Of a DNA stretch of 64,000 nucleotides, positions 18,435-33,505 are shown piece after piece. The stretch is from an uncultured delta proteobacterium. Lineage in GTDB: Bacteria > Myxococcota_A > Polyangia > Polyangiales > Houyiibacteriaceae. The position numbers and the translations under genes are program-made. The notes beneath the pieces are model-generated. The model was given only the letters and a program-made list of their open reading frames with translations, was not told the origin of the DNA and made no database searches. The stretch covers positions 330,425 to 394,424 of the forward strand of contig CAWFPD010000004.1 in the NCBI GenBank assembly GCA_963817725.1, in the 5' to 3' direction. Within the stretch, counting starts at the first letter, position 1. Every line of letters begins with the position of its first letter.

Positions 18435-19730
18435 GTGGATCGTCGTGATTTTTTGCGAATGGCAGGCTGGGCTGGGCTGACATGTGTGTTGCCATCGGTC
18501 GTGGATCCCTTGCGGGCCCGTGCGCAGTCGATCGCTAGCTCGGCCTACACGGGAACCTACTGGATAATCATGCATGCCGGCGGTGGCTGGGACCCAACCC
18601 ATCTATGTGATCCGAAGGGCCAGACCAGCGAAAACGAAAGCAACCCGATGGGGCACTTCCTGAGGGACGACATTCGAAGCGCCGGCAACATTCGCTACGC
18701 GCCGCTCGGGGATGACCAGACGGCGCTCGACGCGTTTTTTCAGTCGAATTACCAGCGGCTGCTGGTCATCAATGGGATGGACACGGGAACCAATGGTCAC
18801 GACCAGGGAACCCGCGGTACCTGGAGCGGCCGTACGGCCGAGGGACATCCCCCGATCGGTGCGCTGATCGCCGCGACCTACGGTCCGACCCTTCCGATGC
18901 CCCTGATCGGTTATGGCGGATACCTGGATACCCAGGGCGTCACCAATGCAGTACCTCTGGGTGATGGGGGTCTTCTACACAATCTAGCCTTTCCCGCACG
19001 CCCGAACCCGACGGAATCGGAGGAGAACTATTTCGGCCAGGCGGACGTACCGGGGATCGTGCAGCGCGAGCAGCAGCTTCGTCTTCTTCGGCTGCAAGGC
19101 AAACAGCGCCTGCCGCGCATTTGGGACGGACAGAACGAGCTCATGCTGGCACGTCTCGGGCAAGACGACCTCAAGCGAGTCTCCGAATCGCTGCCGACGG
19201 AGTTTTCAGATAACCAGATCGAACGGCAGATTCAGGTCGCGTTGGCCGCGTATCAGGCAGGGCTCTCGGTGAGCGTAAGCGTCAGCATGGGTGGGTTCGA
19301 CACCCACGGAAACCACGACGCCAATCACCTCCCGCGCCTGATCGATTTCGTCAACGGCGCGAACTTCGCGATGCAGGAAGCGGAGCGCAAAGGGATCGCG
19401 GATAAAATCGCCATCGTCATGGGCTCGGACTTCGGCCGCACGCCCGGATACAACAGCGGCAACGGCAAGGATCATTGGCCCATCAGCAGCATGATGATGA
19501 TGGGGCCGGGGATACCGGGCAACACCGTGATCGGCGGAACGGACGATCGCCACGGGCTGTACTTGATCGATCCGGTGACCCTCCAACCGACGGGCTCGCC
19601 AGACTCGGCGGAAGGCACCAGGCTTTCGATCGCGCACGTCCATCGCGCCCTGCGCAATCTCGCCGGTGTACCGGACGAGTACAAGGCCGCGTTTCCGCTA
19701 GCGGGCGAGGACCTTCCGATCTTCGGCTGA
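18435..19730 (+). CDS. DUF1501 (sulfatase-like fold) protein with a Tat signal
   Basis: GTG start. Tat signal RRDFLRMAGWAGL. DUF1501-like motifs HAGGGWD, MGGFDTHGNHD, MGSDFGRTP...GKDHW. Confidence 0.8.
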   Translation: MDRRDFLRMAGWAGLTCVLPSVVDPLRARAQSIASSAYTGTYWIIMHAGGGWDPTHLCDPKGQTSENESNPMGHFLRDDIRSAGNIRYAPLGDDQTALDAFFQSNYQRLLVINGMDTGTNGHDQGTRGTWSGRTAEGHPPIGALIAATYGPTLPMPLIGYGGYLDTQGVTNAVPLGDGGLLHNLAFPARPNPTESEENYFGQADVPGIVQREQQLRLLRLQGKQRLPRIWDGQNELMLARLGQDDLKRVSESLPTEFSDNQIERQIQVALAAYQAGLSVSVSVSMGGFDTHGNHDANHLPRLIDFVNGANFAMQEAERKGIADKIAIVMGSDFGRTPGYNSGNGKDHWPISSMMMMGPGIPGNTVIGGTDDRHGLYLIDPVTLQPTGSPDSAEGTRLSIAHVHRALRNLAGVPDEYKAAFPLAGEDLPIFG

Positions 19731-19740
19731 TGGCGTTGCG

Positions 19741-20643
19741 TTAAAACGCAGCGCCGCCGCCGATTCGCAGACCCCAAACCTGTCGTTTGTCGAACGAAAA
19801 GCCGTTCGGGTTGTCGATGTTGATGTTCAACCGAATCGCGCCAAACGCATTGTCGTTGCCGAATCGCATGAAGGGCTCGACCGCAAGCTGGGTCTTCTCC
19901 TCATTGAACTTGGGGATCAAGACCAAGCTGAACCTGGACCCGACCCGCAGCCAATCGGTTGCCTGGTAACCCATCATGGCGGCCATCTGCATGATGAAGT
20001 CCACCTTCGACGTTCGGGCGTTCTTGTCGTTGATCTTGATCAAGGCGCCGGTGTCGAGATAGGCGCCCCACAAGAAGCCGCTCGGTTTGGTCCGCTCGAG
20101 CGCCACCGGAACGATGACGCTCACCGTGTGGGGGTCCCAAAGCCAATACATGTTGTTTCCGCGTATCGCGGCCGCCAACTGATAGGCCTGTGCCGCGGTC
20201 ACCTGATCCTGATCGGGGATGTCGCCAGGAAGGGTAGCTACCGGAATGGTCGCGCCTAACCCGACCCGATAGGAGAACTGATTCTTTTTTCCCTGGTAGT
20301 GAAAGACGATGTAGGGATTTCCAAAGCGGAACGCGTTGCGCTTGTCGGCATTTTCGAAATCTACGTTGGCATACGCCATGCCCCAGACGACCTGCATGAG
20401 AACGCTGTAGGCGAGTTGCAGACGCATCTCGATGAGCGGGCTGACTAGCACCGAGCGTTGGTCTCCCTCGAGCTTGCCGGCGAATAGACCTATCTCGCCC
20501 AGAACGTGAAACCGCTGGGTATGGGCCTTCGCTCCGTCATCGAGGCTGTACGGCTCGTCCGGAAAAGCGCGCGCCTTTCCTGGCGCCAGCCACACTGCCG
20601 CAAAGAACAGACCAAGGACTCCCCACCGTCGAAGAACAGACAT
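19741..20643 (-). CDS. Predicted outer-membrane beta-barrel protein
   Basis: Has a signal peptide (LAPGKARAF) and alternating amphipathic strands. It ends in GGGAAF, with a terminal Phe. Confidence 0.55.
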   Translation of the reverse strand: MSVLRRWGVLGLFFAAVWLAPGKARAFPDEPYSLDDGAKAHTQRFHVLGEIGLFAGKLEGDQRSVLVSPLIEMRLQLAYSVLMQVVWGMAYANVDFENADKRNAFRFGNPYIVFHYQGKKNQFSYRVGLGATIPVATLPGDIPDQDQVTAAQAYQLAAAIRGNNMYWLWDPHTVSVIVPVALERTKPSGFLWGAYLDTGALIKINDKNARTSKVDFIMQMAAMMGYQATDWLRVGSRFSLVLIPKFNEEKTQLAVEPFMRFGNDNAFGAIRLNINIDNPNGFSFDKRQVWGLRIGGGAAF

Positions 20644-20719
20644 CGATCAACCCCCAAGTGAAAAGAGACCCCCTCTTTTCCTGCTCTTCAATATAGACAG
20701 CTGGGCCGAACATGGCCCA

Positions 20720-20740
20720 CGTTCCGTCGTGAACGGAACG
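20720..20740 (-). terminator. Possible transcription-terminating hairpin downstream of the CarH-like gene
   Basis: CGTTCCGT-cgtga-ACGGAACG forms a perfect 8-bp stem. A second hairpin, GGGCC-N6-GGCCC, lies adjacent. There is no clear U-tract. Confidence 0.3.
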
Positions 20741-20811
20741 GCGGCGTCAGAGAAGGGAGCGTCGGTTCAGGGCTGGACTGCGACGTGGGAGGGTTCGGCC
20801 TCGGTGAGCCC

Positions 20812-21747
20812 TCATGCCAAGCGCTGGGTCGACTCCAAAGGACGCCTGGTGAGAGCGGCGTCCAGCTCTTCGTAGTGGTGCATCATGCGGGCAGGAAGCC
20901 GCTGGGTCGATAGAACATGCCCTTCAGGAAGGCCCAGCCAGACTTCGTGGTCTTCGGCCAGGCGTTCGATACCCGCGCCCAAGGCCTCGCGTTCGCCCGG
21001 TTCGCAATCCCGCGCGATGCTCAATATGATGAGCTCGGCGCCGCTCTGGTCAGCCGCTTCGGCGATGTCGTCAAATGGCATGTGCGTGCCCAGATAGATG
21101 GGTTCGAAGCCCCGACTCGCGGCCATGAATGCACCGATGATCGCACCGAACTCGTGCAAGTGATTCGGAGGAGTCGCCACGATCACCCGAGGCGCGCCCG
21201 ACACCGGATCGGTATGTCGCATCAGCGCGCCCAGCAAGCTTCGCAGTTGGCCCGAGATGATGTGCTCATGAGAGATCCGAAACTGGTCTGAGCTCCACGC
21301 ATCCCCGACACGGCGCATGAGTGGCACGATCACCTCGAGTGTGAGCGTCATGGCCGGCAAAATGGCTGCCGTCCGGGTCAATATCGACTCTGCGCGCTGC
21401 ACGTCGTACTCGAAAACGGCCTCTAGGTAGTCCTCCACGACGGCTGCATACAGCGAAACCTTGCTTCCGATGTCCGATCCAGTCTCTCCGATCAGCCGCC
21501 GGAGCTCATCATCGCGCAGCCGTGCGACCTGACCGATCGAATGCCCAAGCTCGGTGGCACGCCGCAAGAGGACCAATCGTTTCACCTGAGCGCCGGAGTA
21601 TCTCCGCTTGTTGCCTTCGGTTCGATCTGGCTCGACCGCGGCATATCGACGCTCCCAAACACGGATCGTATCCGCGGTCAGACCTGTGAGACGCGCCACG
21701 ACGCGCATTGGATAGAGTCCGCTCATTTCTTTGACGTTGTTGCTCAT
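20812..21747 (-). CDS. carH: MerR-family, cobalamin-binding light-sensor-type regulator (CarH/LitR-like)
   Basis: N-terminal MerR HTH (YPMRVVARLTGLTADTIRVWERRY...RRYSGAQV). Has the Wx9EH motif (W-SSDQFRISH-EH). The B12-binding domain reads VIVATPPNHLHEFGAIIG...AELIILSI. Confidence 0.75.
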   Translation of the reverse strand: MSNNVKEMSGLYPMRVVARLTGLTADTIRVWERRYAAVEPDRTEGNKRRYSGAQVKRLVLLRRATELGHSIGQVARLRDDELRRLIGETGSDIGSKVSLYAAVVEDYLEAVFEYDVQRAESILTRTAAILPAMTLTLEVIVPLMRRVGDAWSSDQFRISHEHIISGQLRSLLGALMRHTDPVSGAPRVIVATPPNHLHEFGAIIGAFMAASRGFEPIYLGTHMPFDDIAEAADQSGAELIILSIARDCEPGEREALGAGIERLAEDHEVWLGLPEGHVLSTQRLPARMMHHYEELDAALTRRPLESTQRLA

Positions 21748-21833
21748 GATTGGCCGTTGATTAGAGGTACGGAAGCGGGTACCCGTTACGCGGGATCACT
21801 CGATTCGCCTGAAGATGAATGGGGTGGTGGTGC

Positions 21834-23285
21834 TTACATCCATCTTTCGTGTTCCTGTGTTGGGTACCCGCCTCGTACCGGAAGGGTTAGGGTTCCGGCG
21901 AAGCTCGTGTCTGCGCTGCGAGACAGATGCTTGGCGAAGCGACTCATCAACCAACGGTGAAAAATCGCCTGCGAAAAAATGTAGACGAGCCAAGGCAAAC
22001 GAGGCTCGTAGTCGTGCACGACGGTCAGTAACGTCCGGCCGCCCAACACCTGACGAAGCTCGAACCGAGGCCTGCCATTGCGGCGCGAGAGAAGACCACC
22101 GGTCACGTAAAAAAGCTGTCGATCGGGGCTGCTGCGGCCCGGCGCTCGCGTCAGCTCGAGAAGAGGCGACCGGAGCGGTGTCAAAACGAAGCGGAAACGA
22201 TCGGCCGACTGGATGTCTACGCGCAACAACGACCGCAAGAAGCGCGGCAGCCACTGAAGATATTCGGACGCAGCCCGCTGGGCGGTCCAGCCTGCGGGCA
22301 ACTGCATGCGCTGCACGGACCGAACCAAGCGTTGCCTCGAGCTCGTGCCTCGGAACGCATGAGGGGCCGATCCATCGGTCTGCGCTACGGCCCGGCGGAT
22401 CGCCTCGCGAATCGGGGTGCGTTCGACGCCCAGCCGCTCCGCAAGACCATCGTCCCGAATGACCATTTCGTGCCGGAGGCTCTGAACGAGCGGCCCCACC
22501 AGCGCCCTTGGCGCGCCCGTGATCAGTGTGATCCACAGACGGGACAACCCAGGCGACATGATTCGGGAAGGAATGAACAGACGACGCTTGCCAAGTGACG
22601 AAGCCGTCATGGCCATCATCTGCTTGTAGGTCACGATATCGGGAGCTCCGATGTCGTAGACCCGATCATAGTGCTCTTCGCTGCCGATCACTCCGCCGAT
22701 CATCCGTACGACATCCTCGAGCGCGACGGGTTGCGTTCGGATGTTCGTCCAGCGCGGGCACACCATGATGGGCAGGCGCTCGACCAATCGCGCCATGATT
22801 TGGAACGAGGAGCCGCGACCGCCCAAGATGAGACCCGCCCGCAACGTGGTCACAGGCACCACGTGGCCCGCAAGCACCTTTTCCACCTCGCTGCGGCTCT
22901 GGAGGTGCTTCGATAGCTCTGCTCCCTCGGGAATCAGCCCGCCAAGAAAAATGATCTGCTTCACACCCGCAGCGGCCGCCGCTCTTGCAAAGTTGTCAGC
23001 GCACACCACGTCGAGGTCCGCGAAGTCACCCTGCGTGAACCGCGTCGAGGGCATCATGTTGTGCACGAGGTACACCGCGTACTCCGCCCCTTGCAGCGCC
23101 TGCTCGGCCTCCTTCAACGAAAACAAATCGCAGGAGCGGTACTCGTCGAAGCCGCCGCCAGGCGTCCGAACCGATCGGGACAAGCCGATCACGTGGAAGG
23201 ACTCGGCGAGCACCGGCGCAAGCGCTTGCCCCACGAACCCTGAGGCTCCAGCGATCACCACCTTGGGCCGACGCGGCTCTTTCAT
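21834..23285 (-). CDS. NAD(P)-binding SDR-like protein with a C-terminal DUF2867-like domain
   Basis: N-terminus PKVVIAGASGFVGQALAPVL. Length is about 480 aa. It is the first gene of the operon that ends with the CarH-like gene. Confidence 0.65.
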   Translation of the reverse strand: MKEPRRPKVVIAGASGFVGQALAPVLAESFHVIGLSRSVRTPGGGFDEYRSCDLFSLKEAEQALQGAEYAVYLVHNMMPSTRFTQGDFADLDVVCADNFARAAAAAGVKQIIFLGGLIPEGAELSKHLQSRSEVEKVLAGHVVPVTTLRAGLILGGRGSSFQIMARLVERLPIMVCPRWTNIRTQPVALEDVVRMIGGVIGSEEHYDRVYDIGAPDIVTYKQMMAMTASSLGKRRLFIPSRIMSPGLSRLWITLITGAPRALVGPLVQSLRHEMVIRDDGLAERLGVERTPIREAIRRAVAQTDGSAPHAFRGTSSRQRLVRSVQRMQLPAGWTAQRAASEYLQWLPRFLRSLLRVDIQSADRFRFVLTPLRSPLLELTRAPGRSSPDRQLFYVTGGLLSRRNGRPRFELRQVLGGRTLLTVVHDYEPRLPWLVYIFSQAIFHRWLMSRFAKHLSRSADTSFAGTLTLPVRGGYPTQEHERWM

Positions 23286-23287
23286 GT

Positions 23288-23320
23288 CTGTCTATATACT
23301 GTCTATATTTTTATGGTCAA
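23288..23320 (-). promoter_or_regulatory. Putative sigma-70-type promoter with two tandem 11-bp CarH-operator-like direct repeats; possibly a leaderless transcript
   Basis: The bottom strand reads TTGACC-16nt-TATATA-7nt-ATG, with the ATG at 23285. The tandem repeats AATATAGACAG and TATATAGACAG (23309-23288) both fit nAnnTnnACAn. They cover the spacer and the -10 hexamer. Confidence 0.45.
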
Positions 23321-23359
23321 TACATGGACATCTTTTCTTGTTTGCCAGAGCCCCAGAAT

Positions 23360-23389
23360 TGAAACATGTTCTAGTGAAACATGTTCTAG
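23360..23389 (+). repeat. Perfect 15-bp tandem direct repeat (TGAAACATGTTCTAG x2) upstream of the Rieske oxygenase operon
   Basis: Read directly: unit 1 at 23360-23374, unit 2 at 23375-23389. Each unit contains the palindrome AACATGTT. The repeat lies 49-78 nt upstream of the ATG at 23438. Confidence 0.85.
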
Positions 23390-23437
23390 TTTGGCGGTCC
23401 GTACTCGAATGGCCGCCCGACCAGAAGGAGCTCCCTC

Positions 23438-24412
23438 ATGACGGACGATGCGAAGACGAACCCCTGGGCAGGCTTTGCCAGAGGCTGGTTCGTGTTGATG
23501 TTCTCGGACGAGTTGGCAGCTGGCCAGGTGGTGCCGATGAAGCGCTTCGGCCAAGAGCTCGTCTTGTTTCGCACCGAGGCGGGACAAGCCAAAGTGTTCG
23601 ACGCCTACTGCCCCCACATGGGCGCGCATCTCGGACACGGAGGCAAGGTCCGAGGCGAGGCCATCGTCTGTCCGTTCCACGCTTGGAAGTTCGACGGAAC
23701 GGGCAAGTGCGTCGAGATTCCGTATGCAAAGCGCATCCCACCCAAGGCAGCCGTGGCGTGTTGGCCGGTGCGCGAGCGCAACGGGATGATCTTCGTCTGG
23801 CACGATCGGGAAAAGAGCCAGCCCGACTGGGAGATCCCCGAGCTCGAAGAGTGGGACGATCCGGCGTTCCTTTCCTGGCGGTATGCCAAGCTCGAGATCA
23901 AGACGCCGCCGCTAGCCATTGCGGAGAATTTGGCGGACGCGGGCCACTTCATTCCGGTCCACAATACGCATCCTGTTCCTGGCTCCTTCAGCAACACCTA
24001 TCAGGGCCACGTCGGGCAACAGAAGATCAAGGCGGTCGCGTACCCGGTGCACGGCGGCAAGGACGAGTTTGAGTCCACCGCGACTTACTACGGGCCTGGA
24101 TATCAAGTCACGAAGATGCACGGAAAGGGCCTGGGTGTGATCATCAATGCCCACACGCCGATCGACGACGAGCGCGTCATGCTGCGATTTGGGGTGTCGA
24201 TGAAGGCAACCAAGGACATGACGGAAGAGCTCATCGATCATTTCATCGACAACATGCGCGATGGATACCTCCAAGATGTCCGCATTTGGGAGAACAAGAT
24301 CTATCTCGATCGGCCGATTCTGTGCGACGGTGACGGGCCCATCGGCGAGTTTCGCCGGTGGTACGCCCAGTTCTATGCTCCGCGCCGGGAAGCTGCCGAC
24401 GCGGCGGAGTAA
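23438..24412 (+). CDS. Rieske [2Fe-2S] oxygenase, KshA-like (3-ketosteroid 9-alpha-hydroxylase oxygenase family)
   Basis: Rieske motif CPHMGAHLGHGG...CPFHAWKFDGTGKC, then IPYAKRIPPKA. The C-terminal GYLQDVRIWENKIYLDRPILCDGDGPIGEFRRWYAQFY closely parallels the KshA sequence as I recall it. GGAG RBS. Confidence 0.8.
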   Translation: MTDDAKTNPWAGFARGWFVLMFSDELAAGQVVPMKRFGQELVLFRTEAGQAKVFDAYCPHMGAHLGHGGKVRGEAIVCPFHAWKFDGTGKCVEIPYAKRIPPKAAVACWPVRERNGMIFVWHDREKSQPDWEIPELEEWDDPAFLSWRYAKLEIKTPPLAIAENLADAGHFIPVHNTHPVPGSFSNTYQGHVGQQKIKAVAYPVHGGKDEFESTATYYGPGYQVTKMHGKGLGVIINAHTPIDDERVMLRFGVSMKATKDMTEELIDHFIDNMRDGYLQDVRIWENKIYLDRPILCDGDGPIGEFRRWYAQFYAPRREAADAAE

Positions 24413-31993: not shown

Positions 31994-33505
31994 TCACTCG
32001 ACCAGATCGAAACGGATCGTTTTGCGGTCACCTGCGCGCAAACGAATCGTTCGACTCGCGGTAGGTTCCCCCTGGCCAGCGCTAATCTTATACCTGCCCG
32101 GTTTGAGCGTTGCGCGCTTGAGGGGCGCGGCGCCTTGGGGCTTTCCGTTGATCCAAACATTCCCCCAGGGAGAGACCAGCACCGTGAGATGTGCCGGGGC
32201 GGCCGGTGCTGCGGCGGGCGAAGTGGCGTCCCCGCTCGATTCGGATCGACGAGCGGCGGCGCTCGCGACGCTCGCGTCTGCAGGATTCGGAGCGATGGTC
32301 TGGACGGTCGTGTCTACCCCTCGGTTGGCTGAGCTCACGACGCCGCTAAGGCTATTTTTCTCCTCCGTCTCTTCAGGCGGCGTTTGGCCCTTCCGACGTG
32401 ACCACAACGCGAATGCGCCCGCGGTGCCACCGAGCGCGAGCAGCAGCCAGGAGGCCTTCTTGCCAAGCTCGCGCCTCGACCAATGGTTCGACTGCGGCTC
32501 CTCGGCCCCGCTAGAAATGTGCACGGACGGTGCCGGTGAAGGCTCTACGCTGCGATCGGCGCCCCGCGCCATGTAGCCCGGCGTGGCCACCACCATCTTG
32601 CCCAACTTCCGGCGCGCATTGGGTGGTGGGACAAACGCCTCGAGCTGCTCGACCAACGCACCCGCGCTTGGCGGCCGCCGCTCGCGGTGGGGGGCGATCA
32701 GCCTCTCGACGATCGCACACAGCCCTTCCGGCGTATCGGGTGCAAGCTCGCGCAGCGCGGGATGATCGCCCTCGACGATCAACATGATGGTCGCGGGATC
32801 GTGAGCACCCTCGTACGGACGGCGCCCGGCCAACGCTTCATAGAGGACGACACCCAGCGAAAACAGGTCGGAACGGGCATCGAGCGGCTCGTCGCGAAGC
32901 CGCTCGGGTGCCATATAGGGGAATTTCCCTTTGACGGTGCTTTGACGCGAGCCCTCCACCGCCACGTTGGCCAAGCCAAAGTCGGTGAGCTTGATCTCGC
33001 CATACCGGCTGATGAGAACGTTCGATGGCGAGATGTCCCGATGGAGGATCCCGCCCGCACCGAGGCCGTCGGTACCTTTGCTCGCTGTTGGATTGTGCGC
33101 ATGCTCTACGGCGGCGGCTAACTCGTAGCCGAGCAGGGCCACGTGAGCCGGCGATAGTTTCCTGCGTGCGTCCAACAATTTCCGGAGATCCACCCCCTCC
33201 ACGAGCTCGAGCGCCATATAGAGCGTTCCCTCGACCTCGCCGAAGTCGATGACCCCCACGATGTTGCTGTGGTGCAACTTCGCGGCAAGCCTCGCCTCCC
33301 GCTCGAAGAGTTGAATCGATATCGCATCCTCGCGAAATGCGGGGCGCACGAGCTTGAGACACACATGCTGCGAAAAACCGCTCCGGCCATAGCGAATCGC
33401 TTCGAACGTCTCGGCCATACCACCCAAGCCCAGCCGGCGTACGATCCGATAGGGTCCGAAGTCTTGAGCGGTGATATCGCCGGGGGATGTGTCCAAGCCG
33501 ACCAT
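31994..33505 (-). CDS. Ser/Thr protein kinase with a TM segment and a C-terminal PEGA-like domain
   Basis: Hanks motifs (GLGGMAETFEA, HRDISPSNVLI, DFGLA, YMAPE). The C-terminus reads LTVLVSPWGNVWINGKPQGAAPL...LKPGRYKISA. Confidence 0.85.
   Translation of the reverse strand: MVGLDTSPGDITAQDFGPYRIVRRLGLGGMAETFEAIRYGRSGFSQHVCLKLVRPAFREDAISIQLFEREARLAAKLHHSNIVGVIDFGEVEGTLYMALELVEGVDLRKLLDARRKLSPAHVALLGYELAAAVEHAHNPTASKGTDGLGAGGILHRDISPSNVLISRYGEIKLTDFGLANVAVEGSRQSTVKGKFPYMAPERLRDEPLDARSDLFSLGVVLYEALAGRRPYEGAHDPATIMLIVEGDHPALRELAPDTPEGLCAIVERLIAPHRERRPPSAGALVEQLEAFVPPPNARRKLGKMVVATPGYMARGADRSVEPSPAPSVHISSGAEEPQSNHWSRRELGKKASWLLLALGGTAGAFALWSRRKGQTPPEETEEKNSLSGVVSSANRGVDTTVQTIAPNPADASVASAAARRSESSGDATSPAAAPAAPAHLTVLVSPWGNVWINGKPQGAAPLKRATLKPGRYKISAGQGEPTASRTIRLRAGDRKTIRFDLVE

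Follow-up and report, generated by a model that had tools for sequence, protein, structure and literature searches.

A 44-bp element at positions 23331-23288 of a 64-kb stretch of DNA, referred to here as the window and taken from an organism named by its source as a Polyangiales metagenome-assembled genome (MAG), is probably the operator of a CarH-type, B12-dependent, light-sensing repressor encoded by the second gene of its own operon. The operon consists of a gene for a short-chain dehydrogenase/reductase (SDR) followed by a carH-like gene; both genes, and the gene for a putative outer-membrane protein (OMP) downstream of them, lie on the minus strand of the window, to which all coordinates refer. 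The switch is very probably of a known kind, and what appears to be new here is an extra inverted repeat and an mRNA that would begin at the start codon. Sequence anatomy, conservation, the specific association with carH operons, and the domain architecture and signature motifs of the regulator were computed for this analysis.

Organization of the probable operator and promoter

The minus strand from 23331 to 23283 reads A-TGTCCA-TGTA-TTGACC-ATAAAAATA-TAGACA-GTATA-TAGACA-GAC-ATG. It contains a -35 hexamer TTGACC (23320-23315), a 16-nt spacer (23314-23299), a -10 hexamer TATATA (23298-23293), the heptanucleotide GACAGAC (23292-23286), and the ATG of the SDR gene (23285-23283). These coordinates agree exactly with the original prediction, which had also identified two adjacent 11-mers, AATATAGACAG (23309-23299) and TATATAGACAG (23298-23288), both of which do fit nAnnTnnACAn; the consensus given there is the one published for CarH on 11-bp repeats (PMC8156234).

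The candidate operator is larger than first described, as an inverted repeat upstream of the -35 hexamer had been overlooked. This repeat, designated unit A, matches all five consensus positions when inverted and none in direct orientation, and it lies one 11-bp unit, which holds the -35 hexamer, away from direct repeat 1; the element was therefore divided into four 11-bp units in register (A to D, Table 1), which cover 44 bp from about -46 to -3. Unit B matches 1/5 positions in direct orientation and is degenerate in this promoter because it is occupied by the -35 hexamer. Because unit D opens with the six bases of the -10 hexamer, regulator and sigma factor would compete for the same bases. 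The -35 hexamer was also considered as an in-phase direct repeat, comparable to DR4 of Myxococcus xanthus, and was rejected: its T lies 15 bp from that of repeat 1 and its last base is A in 5/56 sequences.

Chance as the origin of the repeats in the window is excluded. The sequence WATATAGACAG with at most one mismatch occurred three times against 0.26 expected, a number reached in 0/100 shuffles, and the tandem pattern AnnTnnACAnnAnnTnnACA occurred once against 0.01 expected. Both strands of the window together contain five TAGACA hexamers, three of which are within the repeat sites. A search of the window for direct and inverted pairs of the repeat turned up no further operator, and the TAGACA at 32316, which sits in GC-rich coding sequence, was discarded as a candidate.

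Conservation of the candidate operator in related loci

A profile search with the regulator returned 71 genomic loci, of which L001-L036 contain orthologues (66-89% identity) in the gene order (SDR and/or fasciclin lipoprotein)-carH-(beta-propeller lipoprotein)-OMP. Besides carH, no DNA-binding gene was found in the conserved neighbourhood. The arrangement TGTCyA-N4-TTGACn-N9-TAGACA-N5-TAGACA-N3-ATG was present with fixed spacing in 19/19 loci that contain the SDR start, and the module, seen in these SDR-first loci and in 56 unique sequences, has the consensus tGTCtAnGta-TTGACn-naanAAAAnn-TAGACA-nTAnn-TAGACA-nnn-ATG. Within the 56 sequences the repeats are conserved at A in position 2, T in position 5, and ACA in positions 8-10; unit C is conserved as AACnTAGACAn, with the A at position 2 in 52/56, and the -10 hexamer within unit D as TAnnTA. 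The combination TTGACn-16 nt-TAnnTA was the only conserved promoter-like element, and upstream of unit A nothing was conserved.

The 412 kb of orthologous loci contain 32 copies of the strict tandem T[AG]GAC-N6-T[AG]GAC, where 2.5 are expected and 200 shuffles yielded no more than 7. In 27/36 loci the tandem precedes the carH operon, and in at least 33/36 when two mismatches are allowed, so that the repeats are kept upstream of orthologous operons; the loci without the tandem have truncated or rearranged SDR regions. A metagenome scan was performed with a DNA-only pattern, TTGAC-N10-TAGACA-N5-TAGACA, and gave 61 hits. The SDR and/or carH gene was found on 28/31 contigs with a GC content of at least 0.57 and on 0/30 of the low-GC hits, half of all hits being on unrelated low-GC contigs, and this difference indicates that the module is specific to carH operons.

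Two side observations were made in this set of loci. The MAG MFD09779.bin.2.182 carries two paralogous carH loci (L005 and L008), each of which has an operator and an OMP gene of its own; one locus is fasciclin-first, the other is SDR-first. In many relatives a lipoprotein of ~370 aa with beta-propeller-like repeats, which had no Pfam match, is encoded between carH and the OMP gene; it is not present in the window.

The inverted unit and predicted symmetric operators

The ten bases upstream of the -35 hexamer, tGTCtAnGta, are as conserved as the repeats themselves (56 unique sequences). On the other strand they read nACnTAGACAn, which is the same extended consensus as that of direct repeat 1, including the A at position 2 and the C at position 3. 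An inverted match of at least 4/5 was found for unit A in 51/68 unique related operators, and a match of 5/5 in 34/68; four flanking control units reached at least 4/5 in at most 3/68.

A second type of promoter, upstream of a 342-aa epimerase-family SDR, has full inverted repeats in both A and B (TGTCAA in B). Its units, ATGTCGATATT GTGTCAAGCTT TTTTTAGACAT TATATAGACAA, are ordered inverted-inverted-direct-direct, so its predicted operator is a 44-bp dyad of two tandem pairs. It is conceivable, although on balance doubtful, that the Polyangiales CarH clade uses a dyad-symmetric 44-bp operator of two inverted and two direct repeats about a central axis. On such an operator either a tetramer would be engaged with each of its four DNA-binding domains or two dimers would face outwards, and the operator would serve a largely non-carotenoid envelope/redox regulon (YbjT-like SDR, fasciclin lipoprotein, possibly OMP), partly through leaderless transcripts. 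If this is true, the dyad geometry is unlike that of the operators that have been solved or footprinted to date, which are all tandem.

The regulator protein

The 311-aa product of the second gene matched Pfam MerR_1 with 54.4 bits (cut-off 21.6) and B12-binding_2 with 36.6 bits (cut-off 23). Its best match in the PDB was Thermus thermophilus CarH (5c8d), with an E-value of 4e-26 over residues 8-251 and both domains; the alignment to 5c8d/5c8a runs through residue 251, and that of the DNA-binding domain includes the WERRY and R-x-YS segments. The best-scoring NCBIfam family was CarH (NF052513), with 130.9 bits.

According to a review of the family, CarH homologues are defined by a Wx9EH motif together with the cobalamin motif ExHx2G-x41-SxV/T-x22-27-GG; Wx9EH caps the adenosyl group, and its absence explains the B12 independence of CarA (PMC8156234). 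The regulator contains Wx9EH as W151-SSDQFRISH-E161-H162. Of the cobalamin motif it has H198-E-F-G201 and S243, in which the axial His is kept and the x41 spacing from Gly to Ser is exact. In 18 relatives (53-87% identity) W151, E161, H162, H198-x-x-G201 and S243 are invariant. The alignment over both domains, Wx9EH, and the axial His bear out the earlier description of the gene as CarH-like.

Translation start of the SDR gene

The start codon follows the last TAGACA by 3 nt in 19/19 genome loci and in 19 further metagenome contigs, and at this position it is mostly ATG, with GTG in seven. The same start geometry precedes carH itself in L042. In the window, an in-frame TAG at 23294-23292 lies inside unit D, so that the reading frame cannot extend upstream. 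SDR residues 4-8 (K/R-P-K/R) are conserved as protein while their codons vary, which argues against a downstream start, and a start at V9 or V10 would cut the first Rossmann strand. No Shine-Dalgarno sequence precedes the SDR ATG, and there is no room for one. The most economical reading, and a quite likely one, is that the SDR mRNA is leaderless and transcribed from the A of the ATG (an inferred start); the leaderless mRNA proposed originally thus gains support from the comparison, given the constant 3-nt distance in every SDR orthologue and the stop codon in the repeat. In fasciclin-first operons a leader of 36-70 nt that contains a GGAGG-type ribosome-binding site lies downstream of the same operator, and leaderlessness therefore belongs to the SDR gene and not to the operator.

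It is rather unlikely that the mRNA instead has a leader, with transcription starting further upstream and no Shine-Dalgarno sequence, or that the true start codon is V9 or V10. What speaks for such an arrangement is that the -10 hexamer is non-canonical and that the +3 GTG is not universal in promoters of the 342-aa SDR type; L095 has CTG there, so the operator itself does not imply a leaderless start. Against it stand the invariant position of a start codon that alternates between ATG and GTG, the conservation of residues 4-8 as protein, the damage that a later start would do to the Rossmann fold, and a region upstream of unit A in which nothing promoter-like is conserved. A literature search for leaderless CarH/LitR targets in myxobacteria found nothing relevant.

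Proposed mechanism and alternative explanations

DNA binding, dependence on B12 and light, oligomeric state, and the transcription start are ascribed to this system by analogy with the characterised family. In the dark, the regulator loaded with adenosylcobalamin (AdoCbl) would oligomerise, as a tetramer or two dimers, and its MerR-type domains, placed on the repeats from about -46 to -3, would keep RNA polymerase off the promoter. Light would cleave the Co-C bond of AdoCbl, the oligomer would dissociate, and the SDR and carH genes would be transcribed, so that the operon would be negatively autoregulated by the product of its own second gene. The original prediction had called the repeats a CarH-type operator that acts by promoter occlusion and autoregulation, and the comparison supports both parts: a CarH-aligned regulator that keeps Wx9EH is encoded downstream, the repeats are kept in at least 33/36 loci, they cover the spacer and the -10 hexamer of the sole conserved promoter-like element, and carH is always located downstream of a module of this kind.

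Several observations weigh against assignment to CarH. The Rossmann part of the B12-binding module is divergent, with 21.2 bits for Pfam B12-binding (PF02310) against a cut-off of 32.1, and the NCBIfam CarH score falls well short of the equivalog cut-off of 400. The cobalamin motif has H196 in place of E (HxHxxG), SIA in place of SxV/T, and LG (271-272) in place of GG, and because of these deviations the protein was filed as a divergent member of the CarH family and not as an equivalog. Characterised CarH operators contain three or four repeats that all face one way, and just two of the units described here are direct. The -10 hexamer (TAnnTA) ends in A in every orthologue and not in the canonical T, for which reason the window promoter was not called in a sigma-70 consensus scan, and the assignment was kept because TTGAC-N17-TAnnTA is the sole conserved promoter-like element in the comparison. 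The genome loci were gathered through carH homology, which leaves the metagenome scan as the sole independent test of the association between motif and carH, and the organism is known only from a MAG.

The departure from the published ExHxxG...SxV/T...GG and the two scores below cut-off are what would be expected if the operator and repressor were as described and the regulator were no sensor of B12 or light, acting instead as a constitutive repressor of the CarA or class II LitR kind that is relieved by an antirepressor or another signal. This is improbable: Wx9EH, the motif that CarA lacks and that defines CarH homologues (PMC8156234), is invariant, the axial His is retained together with the Gly and the Ser at +42, and no carS-like gene was seen in the conserved neighbourhood. 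It is very improbable that the repeats serve only as promoter architecture, or are bound by an unrelated factor, and fit the CarH consensus by coincidence. Part of their conservation would be explained in that way, since the -10 hexamer is contained in unit D and the -35 hexamer in unit B, and the loci were chosen via carH; however, the GACA parts and unit A are conserved though no sigma-70 promoter needs them, the same repeats precede unrelated genes with different -35 arrangements, the scan by motif alone retrieves carH operons, and carH is the only DNA-binding gene of the neighbourhood. The MerR-family DNA-binding domain could also suggest an activator that remodels the promoter. MerR-type activation involves over-long spacers of 19-20 bp with a single dyad in the spacer. 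The spacer here is 16 nt long, the sites cover both hexamers and reach -3, and every characterised CarH is a repressor (PMC9304148, PMC8156234), which makes activation scarcely credible and leaves repression by a CarH-type sensor as the preferred explanation.

Possible regulon in relatives

In relatives, tandem repeats also precede a fasciclin lipoprotein gene; the 342-aa epimerase-type SDR gene, which is divergent from a small membrane protein gene and has the fully symmetric four-repeat operator; a flavin amine-oxidase-family gene and a lycopene cyclase gene that form a divergent pair; and an SDR gene adjoining a cyclopropane-fatty-acid-synthase-like methyltransferase gene. A light-stress regulon is expected to hold carotenoid and lipid-modification genes, and the predicted set of targets resembles a photoprotection regulon. 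Nothing relevant was found in a literature search on light regulation of DUF2867 proteins.

Operon, neighbouring genes, and other features

Table 1. Coordinates of the candidate operator, the genes of the operon, and related features.
Feature	Position	Strand	Description
Candidate operator unit A, inverted repeat	23321..23331	+	TACATGGACAT; 5/5 match to nAnnTnnACAn; directly upstream of -35, about -46..-36
Candidate operator unit B	23310..23320	-	TTGACCATAAA; carries -35 TTGACC; opposite strand a pseudo-repeat, 3/5
Candidate operator unit C, direct repeat 1	23299..23309	-	AATATAGACAG; within promoter spacer, about -24..-14
Candidate operator unit D, direct repeat 2	23288..23298	-	TATATAGACAG; first six bases are the -10 TATATA
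SDR start codon	23283..23285	-	ATG; 7 nt past the -10 hexamer, 3 nt past the repeat core
SDR gene, operon gene 1	21834..23285	-	483 aa; NAD(P)-binding SDR-type, YbjT type
carH-like gene, operon gene 2	20812..21747	-	311 aa; MerR-type winged helix and B12-binding module
OMP gene	19741..20643	-	300 aa; putative outer-membrane protein; syntenic with carH across the clade
Lone repeat	20690..20700	+	AATATAGACAG; inverted relative to the OMP gene; overlaps putative -10 TATATT (20695-20690, minus strand)
Repeat sites before carotenoid genes, SDR/cyclopropane-fatty-acid-synthase-like genes, and 342-aa SDR gene, in relatives	L028 ~9336, ~4840; L025 ~1494; L027 ~1989
Lipoprotein of ~370 aa, examples in relatives	L004 6988-8100; L012 6927-8081; L020 9371-10519		beta-propeller-like repeats

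In the 483-aa SDR, the Pfam Epimerase and NAD_binding_10 models match the N-terminal Rossmann part only. The original label SDR-DUF2867 is retained only as a name: no Pfam DUF2867 match was obtained, even at E-values up to 10 on the C-terminal half, and the term corresponds to the COG-style label 'YbjT (DUF2867 family)' that the Joint Genome Institute (JGI) gives to homologues. The spacer between the SDR and carH genes is 86 nt long and has neither a significant structure nor a terminator (z = 0.43), in agreement with co-transcription. At the carH start, no Shine-Dalgarno sequence was recognisable (21748-21765, minus strand; …CAACGGCCAATC-ATG). No family was matched by the 300-aa OMP in family searches, and an Rfam scan of 19000-24000 gave nothing relevant.

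The third copy of the repeat that was originally reported between the carH-like and OMP genes does exist, although as a solitary copy that points the opposite way and shows only partial conservation. The OMP ATG (20643) is preceded at a distance of 47 nt by TATAnT (20695-20690), a good -10 hexamer, and the 11-mer consists of the reverse complement of this hexamer plus TGTC. The core CTATAnTGA is kept in every locus; about 14/26 loci, distant ones included, have an intact TGTC part, which is degenerate in the four closest relatives (L001-L004). No partner repeats were found in register around the site. At Sorangium PcrtSc1, one good repeat with pseudo-repeats binds a CarH chimera weakly (PMC9304148), and because of this precedent 20690-20700 is regarded as a possible weak CarH site.

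Relatives conserve, in this order ahead of the OMP gene, a hairpin (20740-20720), a second GC hairpin, a block cTGTCTATAnTGA, a ~40-nt leader with a stem, and a GGGGG ribosome-binding site. The two hairpins between carH and the OMP promoter, CGTTCCGT-TCACG-ACGGAACG followed by GGGCC-ATGTTC-GGCCC (20740-20703, minus strand), could form a terminator or a protein-binding site; the ACGGAAC arm is better conserved than its partner and stays with the OMP gene even past an intervening gene. A promoter of the extracytoplasmic-function (ECF) type (GGAAC ... GTC) was considered for the OMP gene and rejected, as the spacing would be 22 nt. In the 5' untranslated region (UTR) of the OMP gene, a stem-loop GAAAAGAG-GGGGT-CTCTTTTC (about 20680-20660, minus strand) lies at the predicted 5' end of the mRNA, shows compensatory changes across loci, precedes the ribosome-binding site, and had no Rfam match; a role as 5' stabiliser or as regulatory hairpin is possible.

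The minus strand between the candidate CarH operator and a divergent gene at 23438 carries two tandem copies of TAGAACATGTTTCA (23360-23373 and 23375-23388), the exact 14-mer being kept in 28 related loci. Both copies fit TnnAACnnGTTnnA, the operator consensus of mycobacterial KstR, a TetR-type repressor of steroid/lipid catabolism (PMC1995591). The divergent genes from 23438 encode two KshA-like Rieske oxygenases, a BphC/HsaC-type extradiol dioxygenase, a hemerythrin, a ferredoxin, and a GMC oxidoreductase, and together with the repeats they suggest a KstR-like regulated cluster of the steroid-ring-degradation type in a myxobacterium.

Comparison with known CarH systems and implications

Published CarH operators are described as same-orientation tandems, with three repeats in Thermus, four in Bacillus, and mixes of good repeats and pseudo-repeats in myxobacteria, and the survey of the myxobacteria concluded that direct and not inverted repeats are recognised (PMC9304148). 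The closest parallel is Pcrt of Haliangium ochraceum, where four 11-bp units, two good (TnnACA) and two pseudo-repeats, overlap the putative -35 and -10 elements, carH is in the operon, and binding of CarH requires AdoCbl and darkness (PMC9304148). All units of that promoter are in same-orientation tandem and its target is a carotenoid cluster, whereas in the present system a full inverted repeat forms the outer upstream unit, a YbjT-like SDR gene comes first, and the mRNA appears to be leaderless. The site predicted upstream of carH in Labilithrix luteola (Sorangiineae/Polyangiales), where carH is unlinked to carotenoid genes, contains two tandem good repeats and one pseudo-repeat; that site is a prediction, given in a supplementary figure (PMC9304148).

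With Thermus thermophilus CarH (5C8E; PMC8156234) the present system shares the domain architecture, Wx9EH, the axial His, the 11-bp consensus, and predicted repression by covering a promoter element. The Thermus operator covers the -35 and consists of three direct repeats, with which three of the four DNA-binding domains make contact, whereas two direct and one or two inverted repeats are found here; the inter-domain linker is also about 17 residues longer here in the alignment, and the first residue of the B12 motif is H and not E. In Bacillus megaterium, four 11-bp units that are engaged by a tetramer overlap the -35 or -10 as here, but all are tandem. The CarA/CarH operator at PB/Pcrt of M. 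xanthus is likewise long, includes the -35, is bound by MerR-type domains, and has inverted repeats that were noted; these are not conserved in relatives, whereas the inverted unit described here is conserved clade-wide and in 11-bp register.

Among B12-based photoreceptors CarH serves as the model, and it is in wide use as an optogenetic part; the 'grammar' of its operators is still being worked out. Repeats in opposite orientation, kept throughout a clade in strict 11-bp register, would extend the known plasticity of these operators and predict that the DNA-binding domains are placed differently on the oligomer, and the inverted unit may explain why searches for three same-orientation repeats came back empty in some Sorangiineae. 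Should the inverted unit prove irrelevant, the site would simply be one more CarH operator. The system described here would offer a very compact (about 50 bp), light-switchable, leaderless promoter, and it would extend control by B12 and light to uncultured sediment Polyangiales and to non-carotenoid targets.

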